From Candidatus Thorarchaeota archaeon (GTDB taxonomy: Archaea > Asgardarchaeota > Thorarchaeia > Thorarchaeales > Thorarchaeaceae): DNA of 64,000 bases. The stretch is from positions 31,854-95,853 of the forward strand of contig JAEOTX010000044.1 of NCBI GenBank assembly GCA_016839605.1, read 5' to 3'. Under the pieces are notes generated by a model. The model was not told the origin of the DNA, searched no databases, and was given only the letters and a program-made list of their open reading frames with translations. This document shows, in pieces, positions 35,773 through 62,159 of the stretch (positions are counted from its first letter, which is position 1; each line of letters starts with the position of its first letter). The position numbers and the translations under genes are program-made.

Positions 35773-35784
35773 GGTAGAACAAAG

Positions 35785-36702: not shown

Positions 36703-36713
36703 GAGGTCAGGAG

Positions 36714-37397: not shown

Positions 37398-37400
37398 ACA

Positions 37401-38336: not shown

Positions 38337-38350
38337 GCGGAGGAAAAAAG

Positions 38351-39757: not shown

Positions 39758-39833
39758 GGATTCAATGCTTCAAATCTGCTCATTGAGAGGTTTTATCTTA
39801 GTATGCCGCCTCGCCCGATTTGAGGAATCCTTT

Positions 39834-40646
39834 ATGGAAATCATCCCCATTCAGACACGAGTCATCTCTGAAGATGATGATATACTAGAAGTTCTTGTCA
39901 CTTCATTGCAGGATGTCGGTCTTGATTTGAAAGACAATGATATTCTCGGTATCGCAGAAACTCCATTGGGAACAACAGAAGGCCGCGTAATCAACCTTGC
40001 AGACGTTGAGCTCAGTGAGGAGGCGATTGAGCTTGCAGATGAGTATGACCTCATTCCTGAAGTGGCTGAACTCGTATTAAGGGAAGCAGATGAGATTCTG
40101 GGAGGGATTCCACATATTCTTCTGACCATCAAGAACAACACACTCATGGCCAATGCTGGTGTAGACAAATCCAACGTTCCTCCTGACCATGCATCTCTCT
40201 TACCTGTTGATTCAAGGAGCAGTGCAGAACGAATCAGGCTGGAAGCAAGGAACCGGTATGGAAGAGATATCGGGGTCTTGGTGATTGACAGTAGAACCCA
40301 ACCACTGCGTTTGGGGAATATCGGCATGGCGCTAGGTGTGGCTGGATTCCGACCAGTTGCGGATGACAGAGGAAGACTTGATTTATTCGGCAACGAGATG
40401 CGGATAACTAGGAGGGCAATTGCAGACAATCTTGCGTCGGCGTGTACAGCAGTGATGGGTGAGTCAGATGAATCAATACCTGGAGTATTAATTCGCTCTG
40501 CACCAGTGGAGTTTATTGACGAATCATTTGACTCCTCTGCAATGTGGATTAGTCCGCAGGAATGCATGTATATGGCCATATTCGACCAATGGCGAGTTGG
40601 CAGCTCAGCAGCGAAAAACGATGCGCGGATAGCATTCGAAGAATGA
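39834..40646 (+). CDS. CofE-like gamma-glutamyl ligase family protein
   Basis: About 270 aa from the ATG at 39834. ILGIAETPLGTTEGR, LMANAGVDKSNVP and VIDSRTQPLRLGNIGMALGVAGF resemble F420-0:glutamate ligase motifs. Confidence 0.7.
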   Translation: MEIIPIQTRVISEDDDILEVLVTSLQDVGLDLKDNDILGIAETPLGTTEGRVINLADVELSEEAIELADEYDLIPEVAELVLREADEILGGIPHILLTIKNNTLMANAGVDKSNVPPDHASLLPVDSRSSAERIRLEARNRYGRDIGVLVIDSRTQPLRLGNIGMALGVAGFRPVADDRGRLDLFGNEMRITRRAIADNLASACTAVMGESDESIPGVLIRSAPVEFIDESFDSSAMWISPQECMYMAIFDQWRVGSSAAKNDARIAFEE

Positions 40647-40851
40647 GTCCGAATCGAAGAGTCCTCTGAAAGATCGGATGTACATCCTCAGATGTAGATG
40701 AATGCTGGGTCTCCAGAATTCATTACTTCAGTTATGCTGCTGAGCCATATGTTCGTGCTATGAACATTATTTAGGCTGCCCGCAAGAATGATTTGTTGAC
40801 CGCGAGCAAGCACTACTTGCTCACACGAAAGAGAAAAAAGGGCAGCTCGGT

Positions 40852-42252
40852 TTGCGCCATGAGCTGAATATATCGACCAGACCGGAGAATGATGATTTGA
40901 CGAAGATAGTCCTCATTGATGTCAAGACAGCTGGCACATCAGGGGACATGTTTCTTTCTGCATTGGTGGACTTTCTGGGTGAAGATGACGCTCTTCTTCC
41001 TGTGGCTGCAAGCCTACTAATATTTGACCCATCATTGCGAGTCCGATTTGCAACTAAAAGTGATGATGATATTTCAGGTGTTCAATTGAAGGTTTCAAAG
41101 GACTCAGGTATGCGCTTCAAACCGAACGATTTGATTGAGATGATGGATGCCGTAGCTGAGGAGTTGGAGCTTTCACCTGCCGCAAAGCAGATTTCCCAAA
41201 GGGCATTGAATGAGATTCTGAAAGCTGAATCAAGGGCCCATGAGACCCCGATAGACAAGTTGCACCTTCATGAAACTGGTTCAGTCGATACCATTCTCGA
41301 TTTGGTTGGAACTGCATATCTCATGGAACGCGCAGGACTTCTTATTGATTCAAAGATAATTGCCACTCACGTTGCGGTGGGGAGTGGTACAATTGAGACA
41401 GAGCATGGCCTTCTCGAAGTGCCTGTTCCAGCAGTAGCTGAGATACTTGTTGCTAATGACGTTCCGTTCATAATGGGTGAGGCTAAGACTGAAGTCCTAA
41501 CACCCACTGGCGCGGCTCTTCTCGCAACTTTGGCTTCTGAATTCATCGAGTCCTCAGAAGGATTCGTTGTCAAACAGCAGGGCATCGGATTCGGCTCTCG
41601 TGACTTGGGCGAGGTGGCCAACCGCATGAGGGTCGTTGTGGGCGAGTTCGTTGATGAATCAAAGGTTAAACCAAAGAAGCCTGAAAAGAAGCCTGAGAAG
41701 AAGGAACGACCTAAAAAAGAACCTACAAAGAAGAAAGCTGCACCAAAGAAGAAAAAGGAGGATCGAGCTGAGATGATTGATTCCTGGAGCGCGGATGAAG
41801 TAATCGTCATCGAGACCAATGTTGACGATATCGATGGTGAAGTCATGGGGACAATGTTCGATACTCTCCTGTCTGAGGGCTTGGCATATGATGTGGTGAT
41901 GATTCCAGCCTATGGTAAGAAAAATCGTCCCAGTTATGTGGTCAAGGTAATTGCAGCCAAATCTGGGCTGAAGAGCATAGCGGAGATTTTGATCAAACAT
42001 CTTGGAACTCTAGGAATTCGATACGCGACTTGGGACAGACTCAAAGCTGCTAGAGAGACCATTGTATGCAAAATGGAAATTGAGGGTCTGGAGTTCATGG
42101 TCCGTGTGAAGGTCTCTCGAGGCATTGATGGGAGCATAATCAACATCAAGCCCGAAGCTGATGATGTCATGAAGGTTTCAAGGGAAACCGGAATTCCAGT
42201 ACGTGCGCTTAAACCTAGGATTGCTATGCAAGCTCACGCAATTACCGAATAG
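40852..42252 (+). CDS. larC: LarC family nickel insertion protein (DUF111) with Lys-rich insertion
   Basis: 466 aa with N-terminal IVLIDVKTAGTSGDMFLSALVDF and HLHETGSVDTILDLVG motifs. The central insertion is KVKPKKPEKKPEKKERPKKEPTKKKAAPKKKKE. TTG start. Confidence 0.8.
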   Translation: MRHELNISTRPENDDLTKIVLIDVKTAGTSGDMFLSALVDFLGEDDALLPVAASLLIFDPSLRVRFATKSDDDISGVQLKVSKDSGMRFKPNDLIEMMDAVAEELELSPAAKQISQRALNEILKAESRAHETPIDKLHLHETGSVDTILDLVGTAYLMERAGLLIDSKIIATHVAVGSGTIETEHGLLEVPVPAVAEILVANDVPFIMGEAKTEVLTPTGAALLATLASEFIESSEGFVVKQQGIGFGSRDLGEVANRMRVVVGEFVDESKVKPKKPEKKPEKKERPKKEPTKKKAAPKKKKEDRAEMIDSWSADEVIVIETNVDDIDGEVMGTMFDTLLSEGLAYDVVMIPAYGKKNRPSYVVKVIAAKSGLKSIAEILIKHLGTLGIRYATWDRLKAARETIVCKMEIEGLEFMVRVKVSRGIDGSIINIKPEADDVMKVSRETGIPVRALKPRIAMQAHAITE

Positions 42253-42259
42253 TGTTTTC

Positions 42260-44539
42260 TCAGTGTTTTGGTGCGTGAGCGAGAACATCTTTCTTCGAAG
42301 GTAAGTCCTGTTCATCAAGATACTGGTGAGGTATTAGATTCTCAAATGCTCTGAAACAGAGGTCTGCATACGCTTTCGGGTCGTATCTTGTCGCGTCATC
42401 GAACAATTCCAATGCTCTGACACGACGCAGTGGGCTCTCTGAGTCAGCACTCACAAGAACATAGCGTACTTTCTGGCCTGCATTCAATTCTCGACCGCTC
42501 TCTACAAGCTGTTGAGCAACTATCGCCGCTCTTGATGTGGCACGATATTCATGTGGCGCACGTGTTAGGCGATTGTGTAGAACCAAGTCCCTGATGTCGA
42601 CATTTCCTTGGTAGAGCCTCTCAATGAACTCCTGACACACCAAATGCGCCTCTGGTATCTTCTCTATGAACTCAGTCTTGTTGTGGGCCTGAGCGAATAC
42701 CTTGATCATTGAAATCTGACAATCGCCCACATACAGGCAGGTGTCACGCCTTCTAGTTTCAATCCCCCGTGTCTTGATACCTCCGTTGGTATAGACGCCA
42801 TAATACCGATTCAATGGTGCAATAGATGGATGAAGTCGTGATGAGGGAATCACCATCCACTTGAATATCCCCTTCAGGGACATCTTGATATTGGTCTTCT
42901 CCGTGACGCGTCTACAGAACTCTTGAAGTGTGTCATAGTCAGGGCCTTTTTTGGATCTGAGCCAAACTGAGTCAACAATGCCATGTATTAGCTCAAGACC
43001 CATGTCTTCCCCTATGTCCTGTGTCTGTAAGAGCACATCTCTTGCCAATCCAGTGACTGCTGTGTGTGCCTCCACTCTCCCAAACCTGGCATTCTTGAAG
43101 CCCAGGTATCCAAAACATGAAACCAGTATGCCCTTGAGAGTGTTCTGCATTCGTTCGTACTTCTTGGCCTCATAGCCTCGCTCTATCAGCTGTGTGAAGG
43201 CTTCACGTTTCTCTAATACTAGCTCCAGTGACCGAGCCACAATGCCTCTCTTTCGTTGACAGATGCGAATTGGCACCTCGGGGACATCGACGCAGTTCTC
43301 GGGGCTGTCTGGACAATCTTCAACCGTGCAGATGGTCTCCGGACTTATGTTCCGTGTCACCATTAGTGTCGGATACATCGATGAGAAGTCACATTCCGAG
43401 ATGTTCTCATAGATGTCTGGCTTTGGTTGCAGGATGAGGCCCCCTCTATCTATGGACGCCAAGTCGTTTATGGTCTTCAGAAACTCGGGGTTCTTCTTCA
43501 CAGGTGGTATCAGGATACCCATCTTGAAGGCATTATAGTACTGGACAGCCGCATTGATTGTGCCAATTGACATCCGAGATGCTCTCTGTGGTCTTGCATA
43601 TGCAAGCCTGCAGCCCTCCATCACCCCCTCAAGGCCTGTTGGTGAGTAATAGAAGCTCTGCATTCTGTCAATGTGGAGTCGCCCCTTAAACATGACCTGG
43701 TTACCTGATCGAAAGAAGACCTGATTGTATACCCAGAATGACTTGGCCTCCTTCTTCTTGACATTCAAGGGTGACCCATCCCGTGACATGACAAGCTTCA
43801 CGCCATTCAACTTTGCTCGTAGTGTCAAGTACCTGAACAGGGTCGCATCGCCATCTCTGGTGACTATCACATCCGGGTCAATTCCATCAATGGTCCTCTG
43901 GAACTCCTGTAGAATCTCTCTCTCACTCTCACCCTCAATTCGAATGGTGAGTCCTTTGTGATATACGTCAATATGGTGAATCTTGTCCTCTATTCTAGGA
44001 AAGATTCGTCTAGCGTCAATGAATACCTCAAAGCCAATCTCTTCCAGATCTGGCATCTCATAGTCAGAGTCCCCTCGTCTGTCGATACATCGTATCGCGG
44101 TGACAATGTTTCCCTCTGACTCGAAGACGACCTTACCGAACGGGAAGATGTCATCATGGATGAAGAATTGATGTACGGGGTCGATGTCGCCATGAAAGAC
44201 AGTGGCTCCCGGAAGCCGCTCTAGGTCTTCTGCCACCTCCCTGTGAGCATCTGGTGTGGTGGAGACCTCCAATACGCGACTCATCTCTTGGTCATAGACA
44301 CTGACACGTTTCTGAGTGAATCCTGTCTTAGTCACCTTGGGATGCGCACGAACCACCTTGAGGATGTCATCATAACTCCAGTCCAGTCCTTTCTTCTTCT
44401 CACGGCTGACAAAGACTGAGGGATGGAACCCTCTGTACACATAGCCGAGGGTCTTTCCACTGGCCTTGATCCACAACGTCAGTGCCTGATTCCTGTAGTC
44501 GACGGTGGCATCAAGGAGCCATCCGACTTGCTTCATCAT
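42260..44539 (-). CDS. polB: family B DNA polymerase, PolB2-like (degenerate exonuclease and motif C)
   Basis: 759 aa with motif A DFSSMYPT, motif B-like KGILVSCFGYLG and motif C region HGIVDS instead of YGDTDS. The ExoI/ExoII-equivalent regions read IGFEVFID and RDGDATLFRYL. Confidence 0.9.
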   Translation of the reverse strand: MMKQVGWLLDATVDYRNQALTLWIKASGKTLGYVYRGFHPSVFVSREKKKGLDWSYDDILKVVRAHPKVTKTGFTQKRVSVYDQEMSRVLEVSTTPDAHREVAEDLERLPGATVFHGDIDPVHQFFIHDDIFPFGKVVFESEGNIVTAIRCIDRRGDSDYEMPDLEEIGFEVFIDARRIFPRIEDKIHHIDVYHKGLTIRIEGESEREILQEFQRTIDGIDPDVIVTRDGDATLFRYLTLRAKLNGVKLVMSRDGSPLNVKKKEAKSFWVYNQVFFRSGNQVMFKGRLHIDRMQSFYYSPTGLEGVMEGCRLAYARPQRASRMSIGTINAAVQYYNAFKMGILIPPVKKNPEFLKTINDLASIDRGGLILQPKPDIYENISECDFSSMYPTLMVTRNISPETICTVEDCPDSPENCVDVPEVPIRICQRKRGIVARSLELVLEKREAFTQLIERGYEAKKYERMQNTLKGILVSCFGYLGFKNARFGRVEAHTAVTGLARDVLLQTQDIGEDMGLELIHGIVDSVWLRSKKGPDYDTLQEFCRRVTEKTNIKMSLKGIFKWMVIPSSRLHPSIAPLNRYYGVYTNGGIKTRGIETRRRDTCLYVGDCQISMIKVFAQAHNKTEFIEKIPEAHLVCQEFIERLYQGNVDIRDLVLHNRLTRAPHEYRATSRAAIVAQQLVESGRELNAGQKVRYVLVSADSESPLRRVRALELFDDATRYDPKAYADLCFRAFENLIPHQYLDEQDLPSKKDVLAHAPKH

Positions 44540-44805
44540 GCATCCTTCTCTAACTCGGCGACCTTCTGACGGAGCCCATCAATCTCGCTTCGCATATTGA
44601 GAAACATGGACACAAAGGCGACCTCTAGTACACGTGGTGTGACTATCATCGTTCCAGCATCGGCATACTCTCTGGCACTGTCGAATATGTAATCAAGTAA
44701 TTCTCGTTCCTGTGGTGTCAATACCCTTCGGAATCCTTTCCACTTTGATTCCTCTATGTTTATGCTTTGGCGAAAAGTTCTAGCTGTTCTACCTATGATT
44801 CTCAT
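44536..44805 (-). CDS. hypothetical small protein translationally coupled to polB
   Basis: 89-aa ORF whose stop overlaps the polB start by 4 nt (ATGA). C-terminal coiled-coil-like segment; no recognised family. Confidence 0.55.
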   Translation of the reverse strand: MRIIGRTARTFRQSINIEESKWKGFRRVLTPQERELLDYIFDSAREYADAGTMIVTPRVLEVAFVSMFLNMRSEIDGLRQKVAELEKDA

Positions 44806-46041: not shown

Positions 46042-46755
46042 TTGAACAAAATGCCTTTCCCAGCAAGGTCTATGATTCGAATTCGAAGAGCTAATGGATA
46101 CAAGATATTAGCTATCTTGCTTTCCTCGTCAGTTCTGATCACCACAACAATTGCATGCTTTCCTATCGCCTCATACGATTTACCACCCGGGCCTCTGTTT
46201 GATGAATTTCTCCTGGAAGGAAAGTTCTTGGGCTATGATCTGTGGATTGATGCGGGTGTTTGGGTAGTTATTGAGGTGTTTTCTGAATTCAATGCGAGAA
46301 TCAGAATCGAAACTTGGGTTGAGAGTGAGAGGGCTGCATATATTCTGAGCGATTCAACATCCACGCATGAGGAGTTCACACTGGGAAAATCCTCCCAGGG
46401 ACAGTCTGTGTTTATCTTGATCATTCCTAGACTAGATACCAATGTCCGGGCTGAGATAATAGATTCCTCTTCCACTGCTACTAACAAAATAGATGTTCTC
46501 CCCACTCATTCCTGGTTTCTGATTCTATCATTTTCAGCTGTTTTTGTAGACGCTCATTTGTTTTCTGGCTGGCTGAGAGACACAACTGAACAGAAGAGAG
46601 AACGAAAGGTGCGAGCAAAGAAGAAGCGTTCTGATGATGAAGTCTGTATACCTTTGGAATATGTCCTGATTTCAAGGGTAAGAAGCCTGTATGCCAAGCG
46701 GGATAAATCCGATAGATACTGCTTATGCGAGCGCCTTAAACACACGAGAGGCTAA
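46042..46755 (+). CDS. hypothetical membrane protein (uncertain)
   Basis: 237-aa ORF with two hydrophobic segments (ILAILLSSSVLITTTIACF, WFLILSFSAVFV) and a basic tail. Its 3' end overlaps the convergent gene 46723-47367 by 33 nt. No family recognised. Confidence 0.35.
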   Translation: MNKMPFPARSMIRIRRANGYKILAILLSSSVLITTTIACFPIASYDLPPGPLFDEFLLEGKFLGYDLWIDAGVWVVIEVFSEFNARIRIETWVESERAAYILSDSTSTHEEFTLGKSSQGQSVFILIIPRLDTNVRAEIIDSSSTATNKIDVLPTHSWFLILSFSAVFVDAHLFSGWLRDTTEQKRERKVRAKKKRSDDEVCIPLEYVLISRVRSLYAKRDKSDRYCLCERLKHTRG

Positions 46756-47367
46756 AAACCAGCTAATGTCCCCAAGCATCTCGTGGGGCTGGTAATAGAT
46801 CGAGTTCTTGTCGTAAAGCAGTCGAACATTGGCTGGAAACTCCTCGTCTGCCTCGTCGAATATGAGCAGGACCTTCACTTTTGGTAGGAACTCTAATTCA
46901 AATCCAGCATCTCCATAGTCCACTCTCTTTGCACCAAGGCGTTCCAAGGTCTTGAATAGCTTCTCTTTCTTCTCAACGAACACTGAAGTCAGTGCTTTGA
47001 CATCCTCCTCATCAAAGGAGTATCTACAAGCCCAGGAACCTTGAAGTGCATTGTATTTGGACCACTCACCAGCAACACCCACATCTTTTGCCTTAGTGTA
47101 GTAGTAAAGGTGAGGGATTATGCGACTAGTATGGAATTCTTTGCCAGTCATTAGATCCTCCGTTTTTCCCGTTTCAAAGTTGATTCGAAGACCTAGAACG
47201 TCAAGAAACCCTCCCTCAAGGTCCAAGACTTTCTTTAGCTTGACAATTTCCTCCCCAAAATTGTCCCAGTTCCAGAATTCTGAGCTCTTATCGAAATCAT
47301 TGATATTGAACCTTGCCGCGAGTTCGCGCGCTTCAGCCATCCAATATTCTAGAATATCATCCGCCAT
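46723..47367 (-). CDS. hypothetical protein, DUF3786-like
   Basis: 214 aa. The C-terminal pattern YGDAGFELEFLPKVKVLLIFDEADEEFPANVRLLYDKNSIYYQPHE resembles my recollection of DUF3786, a family often found near corrinoid/CODH genes. The family call has low certainty. Confidence 0.55.
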   Translation of the reverse strand: MADDILEYWMAEARELAARFNINDFDKSSEFWNWDNFGEEIVKLKKVLDLEGGFLDVLGLRINFETGKTEDLMTGKEFHTSRIIPHLYYYTKAKDVGVAGEWSKYNALQGSWACRYSFDEEDVKALTSVFVEKKEKLFKTLERLGAKRVDYGDAGFELEFLPKVKVLLIFDEADEEFPANVRLLYDKNSIYYQPHEMLGDISWFLASRVFKALA

Positions 47368-47512
47368 TGCAGGTCGTCAGACCTAAGCGGCAACCATCTT
47401 TGTATCTTTGGTTATGTCAGATTCTAGCAATTCATTCAATCGGCATAGACTCAAATATCACAAACGTAAAATAACGCCTAAGTCCCCGACAAAGGGATTA
47501 AGAGGTTTATAG

Positions 47513-48079
47513 ATGGTCACAGCACTCTTCAAAGTGATCTTGATGGGCGACGGATCTGTCGGAAAGACAAGTCTCAGGCGCCAGTACATGGGTGAAGGCT
47601 TTAGAGCCAACTACATGATCACCATAGGCGCTGACTTCGCAGTCAAGAAGATGACCCTTGAGGGAGGGCATGATGTCAGTATTCAAATTTGGGATCTTGC
47701 CGGGCAAGAGCACTTCAAGAATGTACGTTCTACGTTTTATAGGGGCGCACAGGGTGCACTAACCGTCTACTCCACTGTGGAACGCACTTCTTTTGACAAC
47801 ATCGGAAACTGGCTTGACGAATGCTGGAGCAATGCAGGCAAGAAGATTCCAATCGTTCTGATAGGCAATAAGATAGACCTCAGAGAGCAGTTCAAAGACA
47901 ATCCAGTGATGCAACAGACAATTGTGACCACAGAAGAAGGTCAGACTATGGCGAATCGAATAGCCGAACGCGGTGCACATGTCAGCTTCCTTGAGACTTC
48001 AGCCAAGACCGGCCTGAATGTCGAGGCATCTTTCCTCGAACTAGCTATTAAAATCCTAGAAGTGGGTGGTCTGACCTAA
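47513..48079 (+). CDS. Rab/Ras-like small GTPase
   Basis: 188 aa with G1 GDGSVGKTS, switch I ITIGADF, G3 WDLAGQE, G4 GNKIDL and G5 ETSAKTG. There is no C-terminal Cys (ends EVGGLT). Confidence 0.9.
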   Translation: MVTALFKVILMGDGSVGKTSLRRQYMGEGFRANYMITIGADFAVKKMTLEGGHDVSIQIWDLAGQEHFKNVRSTFYRGAQGALTVYSTVERTSFDNIGNWLDECWSNAGKKIPIVLIGNKIDLREQFKDNPVMQQTIVTTEEGQTMANRIAERGAHVSFLETSAKTGLNVEASFLELAIKILEVGGLT

Positions 48080-48106
48080 CCAATTCATACTCTAGGCGAA
48101 ACAGAC

Positions 48107-48505
48107 ATGGCATTAGGTGATTTTCTCTTTCCACATCTCGACCTGAAATTGGTGATAGCCCACTCCTTCGAGGTTGACATTGAGGCTGAGAAGGATAAGA
48201 AATCAAAGGAATATCAGGACCTCGCGGCAAGGGCGTCCTTTAGTAAGAGTGATTTCCAGAAGCTAGGCATCAAGGAAGGCGGTTCTGTCAACATCAAATC
48301 GAAGTCGGGCCAAGTCGTTGTGGGCGGATTCATTGATGAGCGGCTTGAAGATAGTGTGTCATCAATGCCTCGCGGACCTTGGGCACTATCTCTCGTAGCA
48401 GTTCCAACTGACGGTTCGCCTCCGCAATTGCATGGAATACAGGTCACAGCCACAAAATCGGACGATAAGATTACTTCTCTTGACTCTCTTTTGGAGGGCC
48501 CTTGA
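48107..48505 (+). CDS. FwdD-like molybdopterin-dinucleotide-binding (double-psi beta-barrel) domain protein
   Basis: 132 aa. ...FQKLGIKEGGSVNIKSKSGQVVV... and MPRGPWA resemble FwdD/FmdD and the C-terminal domain of Mo/W-bis-PGD enzymes. Starts 27 nt after the GTPase stop. Confidence 0.7.
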   Translation: MALGDFLFPHLDLKLVIAHSFEVDIEAEKDKKSKEYQDLAARASFSKSDFQKLGIKEGGSVNIKSKSGQVVVGGFIDERLEDSVSSMPRGPWALSLVAVPTDGSPPQLHGIQVTATKSDDKITSLDSLLEGP

Positions 48506-49853
48506 TTTTTGAAACAACTTTGTCCATTTGACCCCGCTCTACCTGCAGTGTCAATCTAGGACTTGATTTGAGCAGATTCAATGTACGCTGAGCGACCTTC
48601 ATCGCTTTATCTCGGACTCCATCCTCCGATTCCCATCCCTGTCCTTCTCGTATATTGACCCGTGCCCTCTCAGCAGCTAAGACAGTGATTTCCCTTTCAA
48701 AGAGTCCGCTTTTTGGAGGGTCATTGCCAATGACCGCTTCAAAGAACAGCCTTCTAGCCTTCTCCCACTCACGAACTTTCTCAAGCTCCTCAACATTGTA
48801 GCCATCACGTTTTGCTTCCAGAACATCATATGGGCAAGAATGCTCGCATGCTCCGCAGTAGAGGCAGTGCTCGGATATGTCGATTTTCTCTTCAGTTCCT
48901 GTCGGATGGATTGCTTTGACTGGACATATGTTGAAGCAGTTGTGACAGCCAACTGGATCACATTTGTCACGCCTTACTATGACTACTTCTCCTGAGAATG
49001 GCTTAGTGACCTTAAGAGCATCATAAGGACAGACCTGAGCGCATAGGCCACACTTCACGCAGGTCTCATCATTGTGGTGCAGCTCGCCTGATATCTTAGG
49101 ATCTTTAATGGTCCTGGGACTGGACTTGGTACATTCGACAGTTATAGCTTCATCTGGACATATCTTTGCACACAATCCACAGTAGTCGCATTCTTCGTCT
49201 ATGGCTCTGATACTTACTGCTGGTCTGAAATCAGGCGGTTCAGCTGATTCCGACCAGAAGATTTTGATTGCTTCAGGACAAAGGAGTTCGCACAACCCAC
49301 AAAGTGAACACTTGTCCTCGTCTATCTTTATTGTGCCTTCAGCTGATTCTTCACCCTCATACTTGACGAGGTCCTTCTTCCATTCGACTTTGACTTCAGC
49401 GTCGAGTGACTCAGTTGGGCAGACCTTTGCACAAAGTAAGCAGGGCGCACACTTCTCCTCATCAATTGTGTGGACTCCGTCGATGTTGACAAAGTCGTTG
49501 ATAGCTCCTTCTCCCTCATATTTGGCATCAAAGGCATTGAAAATGCAGGAAGAGTCGCAGAGTCCACAGAAGGTGCATAGCTCAGGATCGACATTCACGA
49601 GCGGAGCTCCCTCAATCCTTCCTGCTGCTGTTTCCTGAACAGGTCCAAGGGTAATTGCCTCCCAGGGGCAAGGTAGGCATAGACTGCAACCCACGCATTT
49701 GTCAATTGCATGGTCAAGAGTCTTCTTGAGCAACGAGGTTTTCCAGGCAAATTTCACCTTGCCATCTTCAATGTCCATGGACACGACAGGCTTCTCGCCA
49801 ACTGTAATATTATGTCGCTCCATGATGTTAGCCTCCGACTGCCTCTCTTGCAT
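48471..49853 (-). CDS. polyferredoxin (about eight [4Fe-4S] binding motifs)
   Basis: 460 aa with repeated CxxCxxCxxxCP motifs, e.g. CTFCGLCDSSC, CAPCLLCAKVCP, CSLCGLCELLCP, CDYCGLCAKICP, CVKCGLCAQVCP and CLYCGACEHSCP. Confidence 0.85.
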   Translation of the reverse strand: MQERQSEANIMERHNITVGEKPVVSMDIEDGKVKFAWKTSLLKKTLDHAIDKCVGCSLCLPCPWEAITLGPVQETAAGRIEGAPLVNVDPELCTFCGLCDSSCIFNAFDAKYEGEGAINDFVNIDGVHTIDEEKCAPCLLCAKVCPTESLDAEVKVEWKKDLVKYEGEESAEGTIKIDEDKCSLCGLCELLCPEAIKIFWSESAEPPDFRPAVSIRAIDEECDYCGLCAKICPDEAITVECTKSSPRTIKDPKISGELHHNDETCVKCGLCAQVCPYDALKVTKPFSGEVVIVRRDKCDPVGCHNCFNICPVKAIHPTGTEEKIDISEHCLYCGACEHSCPYDVLEAKRDGYNVEELEKVREWEKARRLFFEAVIGNDPPKSGLFEREITVLAAERARVNIREGQGWESEDGVRDKAMKVAQRTLNLLKSSPRLTLQVERGQMDKVVSKIKGPPKESQEK

Positions 49854-52278
49854 CCTGGGGCGGTTTGACAGTAGGCTTTTCTACTATTTCTCTGCCTAAT
49901 GGTCCAAGACGTGTTATTCTATTTACAAATCTCGTTACTTGCTCTGCGAAACTATCAGCTTCAGATGCGGAAGCACTACCAAAGTAAAGGCGTCCCCCAT
50001 CGATTCCTGAAGCCCTGAGCAACTCCCTTACCTTGCCCATCCTGTTCTGAGCATATCCGGCACCTGACCGATAGTGACAATCTTGAATGTGACATCCCAT
50101 GACTGCCACGCCATCAGCGCCCTCTGCAAACGCAGTCATTATAGTTACCACATTCAGACGTCCAGTACATGGAACCTGTATCGGTATCATATTCGGTGGA
50201 TAGGTAATCCTAGCAGTCCCGGCTCTATCTGCAGCCCCATAGGCACACCATCGACAAAGATATCCAACGATAGCTGGCTTCTGAGGATTATATTCCACCG
50301 CGGCCTTTGTTGCACTCAATAGCTGTTCATTCGTTAGGCATGGAAGATCAAGAGCCCCAGATGGGCACGCGGCCGCACATGATCCACATCCCCTGCAAGC
50401 AGCCATGTTAATCAATGGATGCTTTTCGTCATTGAAAGAAATCGCATCGGGAGTACAGTTCTGTTCGCACAAGCGGCAGCTGATGCATAGAGATGGATCA
50501 AGAGATGGAACACATGCCTCTGTAATCACCTTGCCACTAGTGAGCAAGGTCTTGACCTTTGATGCAGCAAGTCCGGCATGGGCTACAGTGTCAGAGATGT
50601 CCTTTGGACCCTGAGCTACTCCTGATAGAAAGACGCCCTTCGTCGGGGTTGTGCTTGGTCCAAGTTTGGGGTGTTGCTCAAGGAAGAAGCCGTTCTCATC
50701 TAATGGTACTTTGAGTAGCCTCGACAGAGCGATATTACTTGGCTCTGCATCCATTCCAACCATTAGGACAACAAGATCCACATCCATCTCGAGTTGCCGT
50801 CTTAGTGTTATGTCCTCTGCACGAATGCTTGTCTGACCAGTGACCGGATCTAGGACAACCTCACCGATCGCTCCTCGGACGAAATTCACCTTGTATTCCT
50901 TTGCCGCCCGGACTTGGAGTTCTTCATGTCCCTTTCCAAAGGTCCTTAAGTCGGAATGAAAGACGAAGGCCTCGATCTCAGGTATCTGCTGTTTGATTTG
51001 AACTACTTCTTTGACAGACGCTGTGCAACAAGCTCTACTGCAATACGGTCGTCCGAAGCGCTCTGAACGACTGCCTACACAAGGCACGAATACGACTCTT
51101 CTAGGCACTTCGCCGCTTGAAGGTCTGACAAGCTTTCCGCCACTCGGCCCTCCTGGGTTCAATAGCCTCTCGAGCTCCAATGATGTTATGACATCAGGAT
51201 TCTCCCCGTATCCAAGTTCCTCGACAATTCGTGGGTCAAATGGCATAAACCCTGTTGCAACAACAATAGCGCCTACGGTGACTGTTTCAGTAGACTCCTC
51301 TTCCTCATATCGAAGAGATTTTGGTTCGCATACCCCTGCACAGGATTGGCATCCAATACAGTTCTGAGTGTCTATGTAAGGTGCGAGAGGCACCAAGTCA
51401 ATCAATGGCCTCACCATAGCTTTTCTCTTTCCGAGCCCGTAATTGTACTCATCAGGGACCTCTACAGGACATACCTCTATACACTTGTTGCAGCCAGTGC
51501 AGGACTCTAGGTCAACAAATCTGGGTCGTTTTCTCAATGTCACATTGTAATGACCAACCGCACCTCTCACGTCAATGATGTCGGTCAAGGTCGATATCTG
51601 GATATTCTCATGCCTTGCGACCCTTGCCATCATAGGACCAAGAATACAGATTCCACAGTCAAATGTTGGGAACAGCTTGTCCCACTTTGCCATGTGACCT
51701 CCGAGGAATCCTTCCCTCTCTACTACAACCGTGCTTATGCCAGAATCAGCAAGCTCGAGCGCAGTGGTTAGTCCCGCAACACCGCCACCAATCACTAGCG
51801 CTTTCTGAGTCACAGGCACATCATGTGTGGTGATTGGATAGGATTTGTCTACTTTGGCTAATCCAGTGTCTATAATAGCTGCAGCTTTGGCAGTTGCTAC
51901 TTCTGGGTCATCATAATGTACCCAACTGCATTGCTCTCTGATGTTTGCCATATGGAGGTGTCCTGGGTTTAGTCCCGCCTCCTTCACAGCGTCAGAGAAC
52001 AGTTCCCTATGAAGGAGAGGCGAACATGCAGCAATAACAGCTTTGCCCACCTTGCTTTTCTTGATAGACTTAATCAGATCTACTACTCCTTGTTCTGAAC
52101 AAAAATGGTCGTTTACCTCAACAAGCGAGATTCCCTTGGCCTCGTATTTTGCCTTCAATGAGTCAACATCGATGGTGTCTGCGATATTTGAGCCGCATCG
52201 ACAAAGGTAGACTGCAGTCTTGTCAGTCTTTTTCTCTTTCTTCTTCTTGCTTTTCTTTTTGCGACTCACAATTTCCAC
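49828..52278 (-). CDS. hdrA: HdrA-like flavoprotein fused to a C-terminal MvhD domain
   Basis: 816 aa with the HdrA N-terminal pattern VYLCRCGSNIADTIDV ... AACSP and FAD motif VIGGGVAGLTTALELA, plus ferredoxin motifs. The C-terminal IVGYLCRWCAYGAADRAG ... PCTGR ... MGCHIQDCHY is MvhD-like. Confidence 0.9.
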   Translation of the reverse strand: MEIVSRKKKSKKKKEKKTDKTAVYLCRCGSNIADTIDVDSLKAKYEAKGISLVEVNDHFCSEQGVVDLIKSIKKSKVGKAVIAACSPLLHRELFSDAVKEAGLNPGHLHMANIREQCSWVHYDDPEVATAKAAAIIDTGLAKVDKSYPITTHDVPVTQKALVIGGGVAGLTTALELADSGISTVVVEREGFLGGHMAKWDKLFPTFDCGICILGPMMARVARHENIQISTLTDIIDVRGAVGHYNVTLRKRPRFVDLESCTGCNKCIEVCPVEVPDEYNYGLGKRKAMVRPLIDLVPLAPYIDTQNCIGCQSCAGVCEPKSLRYEEEESTETVTVGAIVVATGFMPFDPRIVEELGYGENPDVITSLELERLLNPGGPSGGKLVRPSSGEVPRRVVFVPCVGSRSERFGRPYCSRACCTASVKEVVQIKQQIPEIEAFVFHSDLRTFGKGHEELQVRAAKEYKVNFVRGAIGEVVLDPVTGQTSIRAEDITLRRQLEMDVDLVVLMVGMDAEPSNIALSRLLKVPLDENGFFLEQHPKLGPSTTPTKGVFLSGVAQGPKDISDTVAHAGLAASKVKTLLTSGKVITEACVPSLDPSLCISCRLCEQNCTPDAISFNDEKHPLINMAACRGCGSCAAACPSGALDLPCLTNEQLLSATKAAVEYNPQKPAIVGYLCRWCAYGAADRAGTARITYPPNMIPIQVPCTGRLNVVTIMTAFAEGADGVAVMGCHIQDCHYRSGAGYAQNRMGKVRELLRASGIDGGRLYFGSASASEADSFAEQVTRFVNRITRLGPLGREIVEKPTVKPPQDAREAVGG

Positions 52279-52546: not shown

Positions 52547-53005
52547 TTGAAACTCAATCCCATGGAGCTTTACAATCTATTACCCAAGACAAACTGCCGT
52601 CTATGCGAACCAAAGACCTGCATGGCTTTTGCGACTAAGATGGCGCTTGGTGACGTTCTCCCTGATGACTGCCCCCCTCTCCTGGAAGAGGGATTTGAGA
52701 AGAACCTTGAGAAGCTAAGAGAACTTGTCGCTCCGATGCAATCAGCAGAGGAAACTGGAATAAAACTGGATGATTCCAAGTGCACTGGTTGTGGCAACTG
52801 TGTTGTTGTCTGTCCAGTAGATGTAGCCGTCGAGCCTGAAACAGGTCATGGTAAGGCTGGCAAAAGTCGTGACACAGTCTTCATTGTTGAGAACGGGATT
52901 TCAAAGATAATCAATCTGGAGAAGTGCAGGCGATTTCCCCCTGATCGGCTCAATTGCAGAGTCTGTGAACAGTATTGCTGCACAGATGCCATCGAGATTT
53001 GGTAG
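52547..53005 (+). CDS. Fe-S protein: CdhE/AcsC-type N-terminal [4Fe-4S] domain fused to a 2x[4Fe-4S] ferredoxin-like domain
   Basis: 152 aa. LLPKTNCRLCEPKTCMAFATKMA...C has the same Cys spacing as the CdhE N-terminus in this window (LLPGTNCEECGEANCMAFATKLA...C). It is followed by CTGCGNCVVVCP and a second Cys group. The start is TTG 52547 or ATG 52562. Confidence 0.75.
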   Translation: MKLNPMELYNLLPKTNCRLCEPKTCMAFATKMALGDVLPDDCPPLLEEGFEKNLEKLRELVAPMQSAEETGIKLDDSKCTGCGNCVVVCPVDVAVEPETGHGKAGKSRDTVFIVENGISKIINLEKCRRFPPDRLNCRVCEQYCCTDAIEIW

Positions 53006-53013
53006 GTGATACT

Positions 53014-54249
53014 ATGGAAGATATCGTCTGCAGTGGATGCGCGTTACTTTGTGATGATGTGGCCGCAGAGGTGAAAGGTGAGGAAATTAGCTCATTGGGC
53101 CTCTGTAGACTCGGTCATCAACACTTGATCTCCTCAATAAAGATGCACGACGCGAAATCTGTGGTCCGCGATACCGGTACAGAAAAGACGGTCTCTATAG
53201 GTGTGGCACTGAAGAAAGCATCAGAGATTCTGCTCACTGCAAAGCGTCCTCTTCTTTATGGGTGGTCTCACTCAACAGATGAAACCATCACGAAAGGAAT
53301 TGAGCTGGCAAAGTCCATAGGAGCCGCTTTCGATACTACCGCTAGTCTTGGATTGGTTCAGGCACTCATCCATAAGCTTCACTCCAAGCAGCTGGAAATC
53401 GATCTTGATTATGTCCGAAATAATGGTGAGTTCATTCTGTATTGGGGATCTAATCCAACAGAGAGCAGTCATCGACATCCCAGTAAGTTTGCAGTCTTGC
53501 CGCGTGGCGAAAACATACCTGAGGGAATCGAGAGTAGGACTATCGGAGTCGTGGATGTTCGAAATACGGAGACAATGAAGATGGCCAATCATCGACTGAT
53601 TATCCCTCCCGGGGCAGACGCAGAGTTACTTGATGCATTGTCATCTGATATTTTAGGAAAGAGTCCTATCACTGGAGATGTAGCTGGTATTTCTGCTCAG
53701 GAGCTGCTTGGGCTTGTTCGCAATGTAAAGAAATCCGACTGCACAGTGATATTCTATGGCAGCGGATTGATTAACTCAGGAAATACAGAGGCGAATCTTT
53801 CTGGGCTCCAAACACTAATCGAGTCTGTGAGGGAGGCTGGGAAGCAGGCATTCGCTTTGCCCATGGCAACAGAACCCAACATCATGGGTGTCACTAAGAA
53901 CGCAGTTGAAGCAGGAGATGGGGATACACTTCGTAGGCTTGTGGCTGGAGAGTTCGAAGCTGCACTCATAGTTGGCGACGATTCACTTGTAGAGCTGCCT
54001 GGACCTGCAGCTAAGGCATTCGCTAGCATTCCACTGATTTACGTTGGTCCACCTGGCGGCATCACCGATGCCAAAGCAAGAGTTTCTATTCACGTTGCAG
54101 ACAGTATGCTATTGGGATCTGGCAAAATGCATCGGCTCGATTTTGTTGAGGTTCCGTACAAGCAGTGGAGCGCTCATCCAAAGCAACCTGCAGCTGAATT
54201 TGACGTGATATCAAGACTACATGAACTTGTGACTAAGGGGTTGAAATAG
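53014..54249 (+). CDS. FwdB/FmdB-like molybdopterin oxidoreductase family protein without an evident Mo/W-ligand cysteine
   Basis: About 411 aa. The N-terminus IVCSGCALLCDDV...C matches FwdB. Only one further Cys is present (KKSDCTVIFYGSG). ATG at 53014 is preferred over 52975. Confidence 0.8.
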   Translation: MEDIVCSGCALLCDDVAAEVKGEEISSLGLCRLGHQHLISSIKMHDAKSVVRDTGTEKTVSIGVALKKASEILLTAKRPLLYGWSHSTDETITKGIELAKSIGAAFDTTASLGLVQALIHKLHSKQLEIDLDYVRNNGEFILYWGSNPTESSHRHPSKFAVLPRGENIPEGIESRTIGVVDVRNTETMKMANHRLIIPPGADAELLDALSSDILGKSPITGDVAGISAQELLGLVRNVKKSDCTVIFYGSGLINSGNTEANLSGLQTLIESVREAGKQAFALPMATEPNIMGVTKNAVEAGDGDTLRRLVAGEFEAALIVGDDSLVELPGPAAKAFASIPLIYVGPPGGITDAKARVSIHVADSMLLGSGKMHRLDFVEVPYKQWSAHPKQPAAEFDVISRLHELVTKGLK

Positions 54250-54252
54250 ACA

Positions 54253-55050
54253 ATGAAGATAGCTGTAGCAGGTAAGGGAGGGGTCGGAAAGACCACAGTT
54301 GCTGGTACAATCGCTCGACTCTTGGGACAAGATGGTTTGAGCATTCTTGCTGTAGATGCAGATCCAAGCTATACCCTATGGTCTGCGTTAGGCATTCCAG
54401 CTGAACAGGCTGAGAAAATTGTCCCTTTGACAGAGAATGAGGACTTATTGAAAGAGCGAATGGAGATTTCAGGTGCAGGCTCTTACAAAGAAGTCTTCAA
54501 ACTGAATCCGCGTGTTGATGACCTCAGTGGTCTGTTTGCAGTCGAGGGGCCGGATAACGTAAGCCTACTTGTCGCAGGCACCGTAGAACTTGGAGGTTCA
54601 GGATGCATGTGTCCATCTGCTACTCTCCTCAAGGCGCTTATGCGGTTCCTGGTTCTAGGTTCTGATGAAGCGTTTGTGATGGACATGGATGCTGGAGTGG
54701 AGAACCTTGGTCGAGGGACAACCACCGGAATGGACGCGCTCATCGTAGTTGCAGAACCAGGGCGTAGGTCTCTAGCAATCCTGTCCAAGATTAAGCAGCT
54801 AGCACTTGACATTAACGTTGGTCGCATACTAGCTGTAGGCAACAAGGTCGCTGATCCTGAGGATGAAGAAATGATTCGGAAAAGAGTGGAATCCGAAGGA
54901 ATACCCCTTCTCGGAATGGTCCCACTTGATGAATCGATCAAAGCCGCTGACCGAAAAGGCATGGCTCCGATAGACCTTGATGCTGACTCACCAGGGATGG
55001 TGGCAATTCGAGAGATAAAACAACGTCTTGTTGATGAGTTTCGAGAATGA
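54253..55050 (+). CDS. cooC: CooC/AcsF-type nickel-insertion ATPase (copy 1)
   Basis: 265 aa with deviant Walker A AGKGGVGKTT and CxC metal motif GSGCMCP. Starts 3 nt after the FwdB-like stop. Confidence 0.9.
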   Translation: MKIAVAGKGGVGKTTVAGTIARLLGQDGLSILAVDADPSYTLWSALGIPAEQAEKIVPLTENEDLLKERMEISGAGSYKEVFKLNPRVDDLSGLFAVEGPDNVSLLVAGTVELGGSGCMCPSATLLKALMRFLVLGSDEAFVMDMDAGVENLGRGTTTGMDALIVVAEPGRRSLAILSKIKQLALDINVGRILAVGNKVADPEDEEMIRKRVESEGIPLLGMVPLDESIKAADRKGMAPIDLDADSPGMVAIREIKQRLVDEFRE

Positions 55051-55229
55051 ACACGCTTTTCTTAAAGTTACACTGTGAACGTTCAAATCGGTGTCATATA
55101 ATTTACCGAAAGAATACGGATTCATTTGGTTAACGATTGATTCGTATACTTGTTCTCGATATCGTTGATGATTCATAACCTTATTATGCTGCTTTTTGTC
55201 ACGACCAGCATATTAGCCACAGGGTTTGT

Positions 55230-58126: not shown

Positions 58127-58127
58127 C

Positions 58128-62137: not shown

Positions 62138-62159
62138 GAGGCCATACCTAAACGGTCTT

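Follow-up and report, generated by a model that had tools for sequence, protein, structure and literature searches.

Introduction

To our knowledge, the functions of the small GTPases of Asgard archaea are largely unknown. NTPases of the G3E/SIMIBI type (HypB, UreG, CooC) are known metallocentre-insertion factors, and it is an established concept of bacterial and archaeal genome evolution that operons can form when a rearrangement leads to promoter capture. Asgard GTPases have been associated with Roadblock-family proteins (Liu et al. 2020, preprint, doi 10.1101/2020.10.19.343400), and in the Lokiarchaeon MK-D1 the small GTPase genes generally lie outside operons with their regulators (Tran et al. 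2024, PMC10933270).

A sequence-only reading of a 64 kb stretch of Thorarchaeota DNA (the window, by which we mean the whole stretch analysed) had described a Rab/Ras-type GTPase gene apparently co-transcribed with an FwdD-like gene next to redox and CODH/ACS genes, and had suggested that the linkage could reflect control of a metabolic complex by the GTPase. Had an Asgard GTPase proved to share a conserved operon with metabolic genes, this would have offered one of the rare leads to function, and no report of a GTPase-FwdD linkage was found in the literature. The comparisons described here suggest that the pair is probably a lineage-specific two-gene transcription unit that arose by chromosomal rearrangement, with no dedicated GTPase-redox module.

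Results

A Rab-like GTPase gene precedes a gene for an FwdD-fold protein

The features of the locus are given in Table 1. An Rfam scan of the window yielded one tRNA only, at 6644-6716.

Table 1. Coordinates of the GTPase/FwdD-like gene pair, its neighbours and associated sequence elements, numbered from the first nucleotide of the window.
Feature	Position	Strand	Remarks
Native left-flank block, forward genes	34876..44805	+	MTHFR-like, MtrH, MtrA, MtrH, DUF2114, F420 ligase, LarC
Native left-flank block, reverse genes	within 34876..44805	-	PolB, DUF8156-like orf89
DUF3786 gene	46723..47367	-	Divergent from GTPase; Pfam PF12654, E 1.4e-25
Promoter-like element of GTPase gene	47444..47474	+	CATAGACTCAAATAT + CACAAACGTAAAATAA, 39-69 nt upstream of ATG
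Shine-Dalgarno-like GAGGT	47502..47506	+	7-11 nt before GTPase ATG; read from sequence
Rab-like small GTPase	47513..48079	+	188 aa, no prenylation Cys; Pfam and PDB profile matches, orthologues
Intercistronic spacer	48080..48106	+	27 nt
FwdD-fold protein	48107..48505	+	132 aa, double-psi beta-barrel cap domain; profiles, AF2 model
FwdF-like polyferredoxin	48471..49853	-	Convergent with FwdD-like gene, 35-nt overlap; profile matches
TTTTT	48506..48510	+	Directly 3' of FwdD-like stop codon; read from sequence
HdrA2-MvhD fusion	49828..52278	-	Profile matches
Fe-S protein	52547..53005	+	
FwdB-like protein	52975..54249	+	TIGR03129 FwdB, E 1.7e-74 (below cut-off); PDB 5T5I_B, E 6.9e-44
CooC-like ATPase	54253..55050	+	Separate gene within cluster
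CdhA, CdhB, CdhC, CdhD, CdhE (CODH/ACS)	55230..62137	+	
Second CooC-like ATPase	62186..63004	+	Separate gene; whole block 54253..63004

In a profile search the GTPase matched Pfam Ras (PF00071) with an E value of 4.9e-48 and 163.2 bits, relative to a curated cut-off of 21.6, and its translation contains G1 (GDGSVGKT(S), residues 12-20), G2 (T37), G3 (DLAGQ, 61-65), G4 (NKID, 119-122) and G5 (SAK, 163-165), all invariant across 16 aligned orthologues. With five motifs and a score above the cut-off, the protein is a member of the Ras superfamily, as had been read from its letters. The C terminus (...ILEVGGLT; tail ...LAIKILEVGGLT) ends without a Cys, the sole Cys of the protein being C104, and a C-terminal Cys was present in none of the aligned orthologues; it thus lacks the prenylation motif (CC, CxC or CAAX) of the eukaryotic Rab family sensu stricto. 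The Rab-specific motifs RabF1 to RabF5, reportedly defined by Pereira-Leal and Seabra in 2000 as IGVDF, KLQIW, RFrsiT, YYRGA and LVYDIT, have good counterparts in IGADF, SIQIW and FYRGA of the GTPase and partial ones only in HFKNVR and TVYSTV. The top PDB match was Thor-Rab 7EZB ("Thorarchaeota Rab"; E 2.2e-36), followed by Rab1, Ypt7, Rab8 and Rab11, and the orthologues found in Thorarchaeota were 66-99% identical, the best matches being from named Thorarchaeota. On the basis of this nearest solved relative, its Asgard origin and the absence of a lipid anchor, the GTPase is an Asgard Rab-like protein of the Thor-Rab type. A G3E/SIMIBI maturation NTPase (HypB, UreG, CooC, MeaB) was also considered, but the matches were to Ras, Roc, Arf, EF-Tu, Gtr1 and MMR_HSR1 only, with none to CobW, HypB, UreG or CbiA-type profiles.

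The product of the second gene, which begins at the distance and on the strand that had been reported, matched Pfam Molydop_binding (E 1e-7; 32.5 bits, above the cut-off of 26.8) and the FwdD chains in the PDB (E 1e-16 to 2e-13 in a profile search), whereas its 51.8 bits against NCBIfam FwdD NF042908 were below the 175-bit equivalog cut-off. Its AF2 model (pLDDT 91.5) superimposed on crystal and cryo-EM FwdD chains with TM scores of 0.83-0.91 and rmsd of 1.4-1.7 A (0.85-0.91 and 1.4-1.6 A for 8RJA_D and 5T5I_D), and the protein is thus predicted to have the FwdD fold, a double-psi beta-barrel cap. A relationship of the model to the Cdc48/p97 N-domain (TM about 0.5, a generic double-psi-barrel similarity) was rejected because the FwdD chains match it far better. 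Both genes have many orthologues, the best matches of each coming from named Thorarchaeota, and are therefore real genes.

Downstream, profile matches bore out the proximity of HdrA-MvhD, polyferredoxin and CODH/ACS genes. The FwdF-like and HdrA2-MvhD genes were found in all 41 loci of the survey described below, wherever a locus reaches far enough. The FwdB-like protein is presumed to partner the FwdD-like protein, fwdD being directly 5' of fwdB in canonical fwd loci (L043-L053); in the window the active-site CH dyad of the FwdB-like protein (the Cys that ligates tungsten and the His beside it) is replaced by GL, and in all aligned Thorarchaeota orthologues (26 loci and the window) this position is variable and free of Cys. 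Neither FwdA nor FwdC was identified among the scanned window ORFs, and within these ORFs the arrangement is thus not that of an FwdD partnered with a catalytically competent FwdB, FwdA and FwdC.

The adjacency is confined to one Thorarchaeota sub-clade

The sequence-only reading had raised the question of whether this GTPase is repeatedly adjacent to FwdD-like, Hdr or Cdh genes in other Asgard genomes. Our survey took in 41 orthologous loci of Thorarchaeota, with the FwdD-like gene as the anchor. It was found that the GTPase precedes the FwdD-like gene in 11 of these, in addition to the window, whereas in 29 a DUF166 gene on the opposite strand (divergent) occupies the GTPase slot; the remaining locus ends too close to the FwdD-like gene for the slot to be read. 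Two further loci found separately from the survey (L064 and L065) have nothing in the slot, and in L064 the DUF3786 and FwdD-like genes are divergent with no gene between them. Of the 41 surveyed loci, 35 have DUF3786 on the upstream side of the FwdD-like gene; of the six in which it was not detected, five are cut off upstream (L002, L010, L012, L021 and L032) and one is atypical (L041). As judged from this distribution, the divergent neighbour that the FwdD-like gene had ancestrally is DUF3786.

In a neighbour-joining tree of FwdF and HdrA, the window and the nine placeable GTPase-bearing loci formed one nested clade (L004 and L006, which have no complete HdrA match, are outside the tree), indicating that the adjacency is of single origin and restricted to one monophyletic Thorarchaeota sub-clade. 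A conserved functional neighbourhood of the GTPase with FwdD/Hdr/Cdh genes, recurring in distant lineages or independently, was therefore not found. Within the clade, the junction is kept without exception in three sub-clades, the FwdD-like proteins of which are only 58-64% identical, and on the upstream side there has been gene gain or loss, an M29-like gene being located just upstream in L001 and L026.

The native neighbourhood of the GTPase and the position of the breakpoint

Five loci outside the clade (L057, L060, L066, L067 and L068; GTPase 66-81% identical) showed what appears to be the native context of the GTPase, which is followed by a WD40 gene and a second Ras GTPase gene in all five and by a Roadblock gene in four. 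Neither WD40 nor Roadblock genes were found in the window. The F420 ligase-LarC left flank is common to the window and all five of these loci, with PolB-DUF8156 in three, and the left-flank gene order of the window also lies 5' of the GTPase orthologue in L057, L066, L067 and L068. Because the window retains the native left flank of the GTPase, the junction between the GTPase and FwdD-like genes would be the rearrangement breakpoint, and in terms of gene order the GTPase gene lies where two synteny blocks meet (a synteny breakpoint). The native-context GTPase loci and the DUF166-type FwdD loci were compared across loci rather than within a single genome, and the rearrangement was not reconstructable as a single event. 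DUF3786 lies between the GTPase gene and the native left flank. A repeat search found no mobile-element-like repeats flanking the GTPase gene. The same block also contains PolB, an evident bystander, so that a position beside CODH/ACS does not imply function.

Spacer and upstream elements

The spacer between the two genes measures 22-27 nt in 12 of 12 loci (11 and the window), and in these GTPase-bearing loci it has no T-run of at least 5 and no CAGAAAYRTAATAT box. Of the 29 DUF166-type loci, 26 have this near-invariant promoter-like box, at 49-71 nt before the start codon of the FwdD-like gene (49-51 nt in most), and 0 of the 12 GTPase-bearing loci have it. A consensus scan of positions 47000-49000 found no terminator-like site in the spacer; this sigma-70 promoter and intrinsic-terminator scan is unsuited to archaea and served only to note that nothing lies within the spacer, its sole output being a weak hairpin where the FwdD-like gene ends. 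The TTTTT after that gene is a possible archaeal oligo-T terminator, which is weak evidence because it is not conserved in related loci. A general promoter motif was also sought in 22 upstream regions of the window, with no clear common box.

Upstream of the GTPase gene, the element CATAGACTCAAATAT + CACAAACGTAAAATAA, which we infer to be its promoter, is kept in all GTPase-bearing loci, stays with the GTPase gene in L001 and L026 despite the extra upstream gene, and has related elements at the native-context orthologues in L067, L068, L060 and L057. Orthologous GTPase loci also have a GGAGGT/GGTG similar to the Shine-Dalgarno-like sequence of the window. At 47459, CACAAACGTAAAAT matches the ancestral FwdD-like box with 2 mismatches, which could be read as insertion of the GTPase gene behind the FwdD-like promoter; this reading was rejected because the same element accompanies the native-context GTPase orthologues.

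By its single strand, short spacer, lack of a T-run and of the ancestral box, and conserved junction, the pair is likely to be co-transcribed, as had been proposed. The earlier reading had named two observations that would together refute its interpretation, namely a lack of conserved adjacency in related genomes and a separate promoter or terminator between the genes: conservation exists but is narrow, and neither a promoter nor a terminator was seen.

Comparison of the proteins in the two contexts

In the alignment of GTPase orthologues, G1 to G5 and both switch regions are essentially alike in the two contexts, with the exception of conservative changes and one Glu/Ala difference adjoining the catalytic Gln, and only about 7 columns are diagnostic of context. 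FwdD-like divergence relative to HdrA was 1.71 inside the clade, 1.75 outside and 1.74 across, and the rates of the FwdD-like and FwdB-like proteins are unchanged across the clade boundary. These comparisons give no indication that a new function has arisen. Functional coupling of the GTPase to C1/redox metabolism is unsupported.

Discussion

The pair is probably a lineage-specific accidental operon, and its GTPase is of a known kind. The explanation that we consider probable begins with a conserved Rab-like switch of Thorarchaeota, of which the GTPase is the positional orthologue and whose native order would have been MtrA-MtrH-DUF2114-F420 ligase-LarC-PolB-DUF8156, the GTPase, and then WD40-Ras2-Roadblock-thioredoxin-KaiC-like. 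The right-hand side of this order would then have been replaced, in the ancestor of a single Thorarchaeota sub-clade, by the FwdD-like/FwdF-like/HdrA2-MvhD/FwdB-like/CODH-ACS cluster; the DUF166 gene, normally located between DUF3786 and the FwdD-like gene, would have been lost and the promoter box of the FwdD-like gene together with it, and the GTPase gene would have retained its own promoter. With its start now so close behind the GTPase stop codon, the FwdD-like gene most likely owes its expression to read-through from the GTPase promoter (promoter capture), and this dependence would by itself hold the two genes together. The GTPase is presumably still a GTP/GDP switch with its usual regulators, now encoded elsewhere, and the role of the FwdD-like protein is presumably, as before, to cap the FwdB-like subunit in the Hdr-polyferredoxin module.

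It is rather unlikely that the two genes are transcribed independently, the FwdD-like gene having gained a new promoter in the 3' end of the GTPase gene and the spacer having no regulatory meaning. Archaeal promoters are weakly defined and a short BRE/TATA suffices, and such an internal promoter may be present, for example in the A/T-rich ...GCTATTAAAATCC... at 48044-48056, which in the window is 51-63 nt upstream of the FwdD-like ATG and so has roughly the geometry of the ancestral box. This patch, however, is made up of codons for Ile and Lys within the conserved peptide LAIKILE, and the sub-clades differ from one another at the third codon positions (ATTAAAATC, ATCAAGATA, ATAAAGATA); there is therefore no sign of DNA-level selection beyond the coding requirement, and no conserved internal TATA box is visible among these varying synonymous sites. 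The loss of the ancestral box and the lack of a terminator-like site or T-run after the GTPase stop codon also argue for read-through.

True functional coupling, in which the GTPase was recruited to control the assembly, maturation or localisation of the FwdB/D-like-Hdr-polyferredoxin-CODH/ACS system and the operon was kept for co-expression, is improbable. Selection for co-expression could explain why the same-strand junction has persisted in 12 of 12 loci from three sub-clades when the more plastic upstream side has gained or lost an M29-like gene, but promoter dependence alone accounts for this retention. The native left flank already holds C1 genes (MtrAH, MTHFR-like, DUF2114), and the GTPase is therefore embedded among C1 genes on both sides; however, the adjacency arose only once and is missing at 29 other orthologous loci as well as at L064 and L065, and orthologues of the GTPase elsewhere adjoin WD40, Ras2 and (in 4 of 5 loci) Roadblock genes. 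The essentially unchanged switch and effector regions, the constant rates of the FwdD-like and FwdB-like proteins and the resemblance of the GTPase to Ras, Roc and Arf rather than to G3E/SIMIBI maturation NTPases likewise speak against coupling, and the control of a metabolic complex that the sequence-only reading had hinted at is not borne out. We infer that there is no functional coupling between the GTPase and the FwdD-like protein. Co-option of the GTPase as a nucleotide-dependent regulator or assembly/localisation factor of a catalytically degenerate FwdB/D-like-polyferredoxin-HdrA2 module feeding CODH/ACS is very improbable; if true, it would link a Ras-superfamily switch to the core C1/redox metabolism of an Asgard archaeon.

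An artefact of assembly or binning, in which a GTPase contig would have been joined chimerically to the CODH/ACS cluster, has nothing in its favour beyond the source being probably a metagenome-assembled genome and can be dismissed with near certainty, since 11 other independent assemblies, among them the chromosome record CP070658.1 (L006), have the identical junction, and composition is even across the region with no flanking repeats.

Under the preferred explanation, rearrangement with promoter capture, the locus shows how an apparent functional lead can come from the border of two synteny blocks combined with the loss of a downstream promoter, and it calls for care when Asgard "eukaryotic signature" genes are annotated through guilt by association. 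The native neighbourhood (GTPase-WD40-second Ras GTPase, usually then Roadblock) names candidate partners for the GTPase. Separately, the apparent loss of the FwdB active-site Cys-His beside HdrA2-MvhD and CODH/ACS bears on the Wood-Ljungdahl pathway of Thorarchaeota.

With respect to known systems, the window GTPase and Thor-Rab 7EZB share the Ras/Rab fold signature, the five G motifs, the catalytic Gln of DxxGQ and the lack of a lipid-anchor Cys. The window GTPase differs in belonging to another orthogroup (about half of the residues are identical over the aligned region, by eye), in an orthogroup-specific insertion between G4 and G5 seen in alignments (REQFKDNPVMQQTIV...), and in being, within its clade, the first cistron ahead of a redox-subunit gene. 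Outside the clade, the orthologous GTPase resembles the Asgard pairing of a small GTPase with Roadblock/LC7 (MglA/MglB-type) and the GTPase-Roadblock-DENN neighbourhoods, whereas in the window it is separated from the WD40-Ras2-Roadblock block.

The FwdD-like protein has the fold of FwdD of the W/Mo formylmethanofuran dehydrogenases (5T5I chain D, 8RJA chain D, 7BKB chain J, 2KI8), and, as in FwdD systems, an FwdB homologue and an FwdF-like polyferredoxin lie within the window cluster. Unlike FwdD, it scores under the NCBIfam cut-off and has an invariant, family-specific N terminus of its own (MALGDFLFPH), and its gene is not adjacent to that of the FwdB-like partner. As in promoter capture, the FwdD-like gene lacks its own box and lies 22-27 nt behind an unrelated gene that has kept its promoter, a likeness drawn here from sequence alone.

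Identity and Surroundings of the Two Genes

Both open reading frames (ORFs) described in the sequence-only reading were confirmed, encoding proteins of 188 and 132 amino acids (aa) and lying 27 nt apart. The first is, as judged from its motifs and matches, unambiguously a Ras-superfamily GTPase, with weaker Pfam matches to Roc and Arf, the motifs G1 GDGSVGKTS (residues 12–20), G2 T37, G3 WDLAGQE (60–66, holding the catalytic Gln), G4 GNKIDL (118–123), and G5 ETSAK (161–165), and no C-terminal Cys in its translation. The top solved relative was "Thorarchaeota Rab" 7EZB (E 2.2e-36); Rab1, Ypt7, Rab8, and Rab11 came next. The orthogroup is well defined by sequence identity, which was 66–99% within Thorarchaeota and then fell to about 55% and lower. 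For both genes, the best matches were named Thorarchaeota.

The second ORF encodes a protein with the FwdD fold. Its NCBIfam FwdD score was 51.8 bits, well under the 175-bit cut-off; the family profile matched the FwdD chains 2KI8, 5T5I_D, 8RJA_D, and 7BKB_J with E values of 1e-16 to 2e-13, and an AF2 model (pLDDT 91.5) agreed with crystal and cryo-EM FwdD chains at TM 0.83–0.91 and rmsd 1.4–1.7 Å. The N-terminus, M-A/S-L-G-D-F-L-F-P-H, was invariant in an alignment of 30 FwdD-like sequences with only 46–89% overall identity to the window protein. Solved FwdD chains align only from residue ~12–31 onward, and model confidence reached its minimum in this N-terminal segment (block mean pLDDT 60), which may serve as a docking peptide.

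Positions of the features discussed (in the window unless a locus is named)
Feature	Position	Strand	Remarks
HflX-type GTPase	33349-34770	+	GTP-bdg_N, GTP-bdg_M, MMR_HSR1 domains
391-aa ORF	44970-46145	-	beyond DUF3786
DUF3786	46723..47367	-	left of GTPase, divergent
CATAGACTCAAATAT-CACAAACGTAAAATAA element	47444-47474		upstream of GTPase; conserved in clade
Ras-superfamily GTPase	47513..48079	+	188 aa; Pfam Ras E 4.9e-48
GTPase/FwdD-like gap	48080..48106		27 nt
FwdD-fold protein	48107..48505	+	132 aa; Pfam Molydop_binding above cut-off
FwdD-like invariant N-terminus	48107-48136	+	
FwdD-like/FwdF-like 3'-end overlap	48471-48505		35 nt
FwdF-like polyferredoxin	48471..49853	-	convergent with FwdD-like gene
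HdrA2-MvhD fusion	49828..52278	-	right of FwdF-like gene
Small Fe-S protein	52547..53005	+	
FwdB-like protein	52975..54249	+	
CooC-type ATPase		+	between FwdB-like gene and CdhA
CdhA-B-C-D-E	55230..62137	+	
Second CooC-type ATPase		+	right of CdhA-B-C-D-E
CAGAAAYRTAATAT box, example	L014 5952-5965		DUF166-type locus
M29-like ORF	L001 4142-5299	+	between DUF3786 and GTPase
M29-like ORF	L026 2446-3552	+	between DUF3786 and GTPase
Native GTPase neighborhood	L057 6001-8886		
Native GTPase neighborhood	L060 2385-7039		
Native GTPase neighborhood	L066 5001-7911		
Native GTPase neighborhood	L067 5001-9167		
Native GTPase neighborhood	L068 5001-8829		

Past the 391-aa ORF, the left flank contains, going outward, DUF8156-like orf89, PolB, LarC, F420 ligase, DUF2114, MtrH, MtrA, MtrH, and an MTHFR-like gene; PolB in this block is an obvious bystander. 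An unrelated GTPase, of the HflX type, immediately precedes the MTHFR-like/Mtr genes. The remaining window genes are ordinary housekeeping genes, with one tRNA; composition is even along the window, and a repeat search found none flanking the gene pair. A similar 3' overlap between the FwdD-like and FwdF-like genes, or near-abutting ends, was seen in most related loci, and so transcription of the GTPase and FwdD-like genes may run antisense into the FwdF-HdrA operon.

Distribution of the Adjacency

The small size of the FwdD-like family (110 proteins at 90% clustering) made it the anchor of the survey, in which one genome per species was scanned. Of the 56 loci recovered, 41 (L001–L041) are orthologous Thorarchaeota-type loci with 45–89% identity. 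Where the locus was long enough, these share a core of DUF3786(−), the FwdD-like gene(+) convergent with FwdF-like(−), HdrA2-MvhD(−), Fe-S(+), FwdB-like(+), CooC(+), and Cdh. The adjacency in related genomes, raised as a question by the sequence-only reading, was found in the window and in only 11 of the 41 loci (L001–L006, L008–L010, L012, and L026), with a spacer of 22–27 nt in 12 of 12 cases; in 29 loci, a DUF166 gene (~263 aa, minus strand; Pfam E 6e-49) filled the GTPase slot instead, and L032 ends too near the FwdD-like gene to be classed. Locus L064 (near-duplicate L065; reached via protein P0214) has divergent DUF3786 and FwdD-like genes 158 nt apart with no gene between them.

When FwdF-like and HdrA proteins were concatenated for a neighbor-joining tree, the window grouped with the nine placeable GTPase-bearing loci in a single nested clade (L004 and L006, with no complete HdrA match, were left out). 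Together with the distribution, this topology indicates that the adjacency arose once.

Linkage to the FwdD-like/Hdr/CODH-ACS cluster is stable for DUF3786 and, in most Thorarchaeota, also for DUF166. The DUF166 protein (L007–L041) is highly conserved, at 75–96% identity, yet no DUF166 gene was found in the window or any GTPase-bearing locus; it had a weak match, below cut-off, to the NCBIfam DfsP (seleno)protein family.

Native Context of the GTPase and the Synteny Breakpoint

Five orthologue loci outside the clade (L066 and L067, 78–81% identity; L057, L060, and L068, 66–71%) were taken as the native context of the GTPase. In all five, F420 ligase and LarC lie 5' of the GTPase, and a WD40 protein, then a second, oppositely oriented Ras-family GTPase, lie 3' of it, with one additional gene before WD40 in L060, L067, and L068. 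PolB(−) and DUF8156(−) are located between LarC and the GTPase in L066, L067, and L057, and MtrA, MtrH, and DUF2114 were also seen further upstream in L068. Four loci (L057, L060, L066, and L067) then run into Roadblock/LC7, a thioredoxin or glutaredoxin-like protein, and KaiC-like ATPases; the exception is L068, in which Roadblock was not called.

The left flank of the window matches these loci from the Mtr genes through orf89, and the window has no WD40 or Roadblock gene, which indicates that its GTPase is a positional orthologue with exchanged right-hand neighbors. The orf89 proteins of L066 and L067 are only 48–52% identical to the window copy, compared to 64–96% inside the clade, confirming these loci as outgroups. 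Judged by gene order, the GTPase marks a synteny breakpoint at which the right side has been swapped for the FwdD-like to CODH/ACS cluster. The rearrangement could not be reduced to a single event, as DUF3786 lies on the GTPase's "wrong" side.

The DUF8156–DUF3786 gap varies from 0.9 to 4 kb in the clade. The 391-aa ORF within it is unique to the window: it matched nothing in Pfam, and related loci, even the 89–94%-identical L001, have no homologue; its C-terminal segment is hydrophobic. The ORF between DUF3786 and the GTPase, our guess for which is an M29-type aminopeptidase (about 370–385 aa), was found only in L001 and L026, whose copies are 73% identical and come from different sub-clades. 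It was either ancestral to the clade with repeated loss or inserted twice at the same site.

Promoters and Transcription of the Gene Pair

A near-invariant CAGAAAYRTAATAT box, putatively a BRE/TATA-like promoter box, was found 49–71 nt (mostly 49–51 nt) 5' of the FwdD-like ATG in 26 of 29 DUF166-type loci, spanning L007–L040, and is followed by a GGAGG/GGTG-type ribosome-binding site. The DUF166 side of this divergent intergenic region has a conserved block of its own, TAAAAAAGGGTG-N-GATTGCGGC. Conservation of both elements far exceeds that of the flanking proteins, suggesting that a regulated promoter here works in both directions. In none of the 12 GTPase-bearing loci did the 200 nt 5' of the FwdD-like gene contain the CAGAAAYRTAATAT box. 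The intergenic DNA of the pair is the short spacer alone, in which there is no T-run of 5 or more and, in a consensus scan of the window, no terminator-like site. With neither promoter box nor terminator in the spacer, the proposed co-transcription of the two genes is likely.

The CATAGACTCAAATAT-CACAAACGTAAAATAA element remains with the GTPase where the M29-like ORF sits upstream, and it is recognizable in the native-context orthologues L067, L068, L060, and L057. Most simply, the FwdD-like gene would have lost its own promoter along with DUF166 and would have been expressed from the GTPase promoter since. The pair is thus, with moderate probability, a lineage-specific operon made by rearrangement and promoter capture. 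That the FwdD-like gene instead gained a new internal promoter appears rather unlikely: the A/T-rich codons near the GTPase 3' end spell LAIKILE, and synonymous positions among them vary between sub-clades, leaving no evident conserved TATA box inside the gene.

Tests for Functional Coupling

In an alignment of GTPases from 11 FwdD-context (within the clade) and 5 native-context loci, the G motifs were identical and switch I and II near-identical, the differences being conservative changes and one Glu/Ala beside the catalytic Gln. An orthogroup-specific G4–G5 insertion was common to both contexts, and only about 7 columns, none of them in the switch regions, separated the two. The ratio of FwdD-like to HdrA divergence was 1.71 within the clade, 1.75 outside, and 1.74 across its boundary, where no rate shift was found in the FwdB-like, FwdF-like, DUF3786, or Fe-S proteins. 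G3E/SIMIBI NTPases insert metal centres; the GTPase has no similarity to them, and the cluster encodes its CooC-type ATPases in genes of their own.

Functional coupling of the GTPase to C1/redox metabolism, at which the sequence-only reading had hinted, is unsupported: the switch regions and normalized divergence are unchanged, and the adjacency had a single origin. With no context-specific switch change, rate shift, or G3E/SIMIBI likeness, true functional recruitment is very improbable. Dependence of the FwdD-like gene on the GTPase promoter would hold the junction whether or not the proteins interact.

Comparison with Known Systems

In the Bathyarchaeia canonical fwd loci from the same scan (L043–L053), fwdD is immediately 5' of fwdB, and we therefore take the FwdB-like protein (E 6.9e-44 to 5T5I_B) as the partner of the FwdD-like protein. 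It retains the N-terminal CxxCxxxCDD Fe-S cluster motif. At the active-site "CH" position, SVCHGPS in 5T5I_B is replaced by SLGLVQA, and this position is variable and Cys-free in all aligned Thorarchaeota orthologues (26 loci from L003–L041 and the window). Bathyarchaeia fwdB still has (V/I)CHGPS at this site, and LCHG persists in Thermoproteota L042, whose cluster order is the same. Lacking this Cys-His, the FwdB/D-like pair of Thorarchaeota is unlikely to be a conventional CO2-reducing centre; catalytic degeneration or repurposing of the module beside HdrA2-MvhD and CODH/ACS is possible. This side observation may outweigh the GTPase linkage in interest.

No published link between a small GTPase and FwdD, Hdr, or CODH/ACS was found in a literature search. 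The native arrangement of GTPase, WD40, and second Ras GTPase (followed by Roadblock in four of the five loci) is a candidate GTPase-regulator module that merits its own study. The GTPase itself is a further member of the already known Asgard Rab-like kind, which is well documented and includes a solved Thor-Rab structure (PMC10933270). In MK-D1, small GTPase genes are generally found outside the operons of Roadblock, longin, or TRAPPC3 genes (PMC10933270), and a conserved Roadblock-Rab-like-DENN neighborhood is known (doi 10.1101/2020.10.19.343400).
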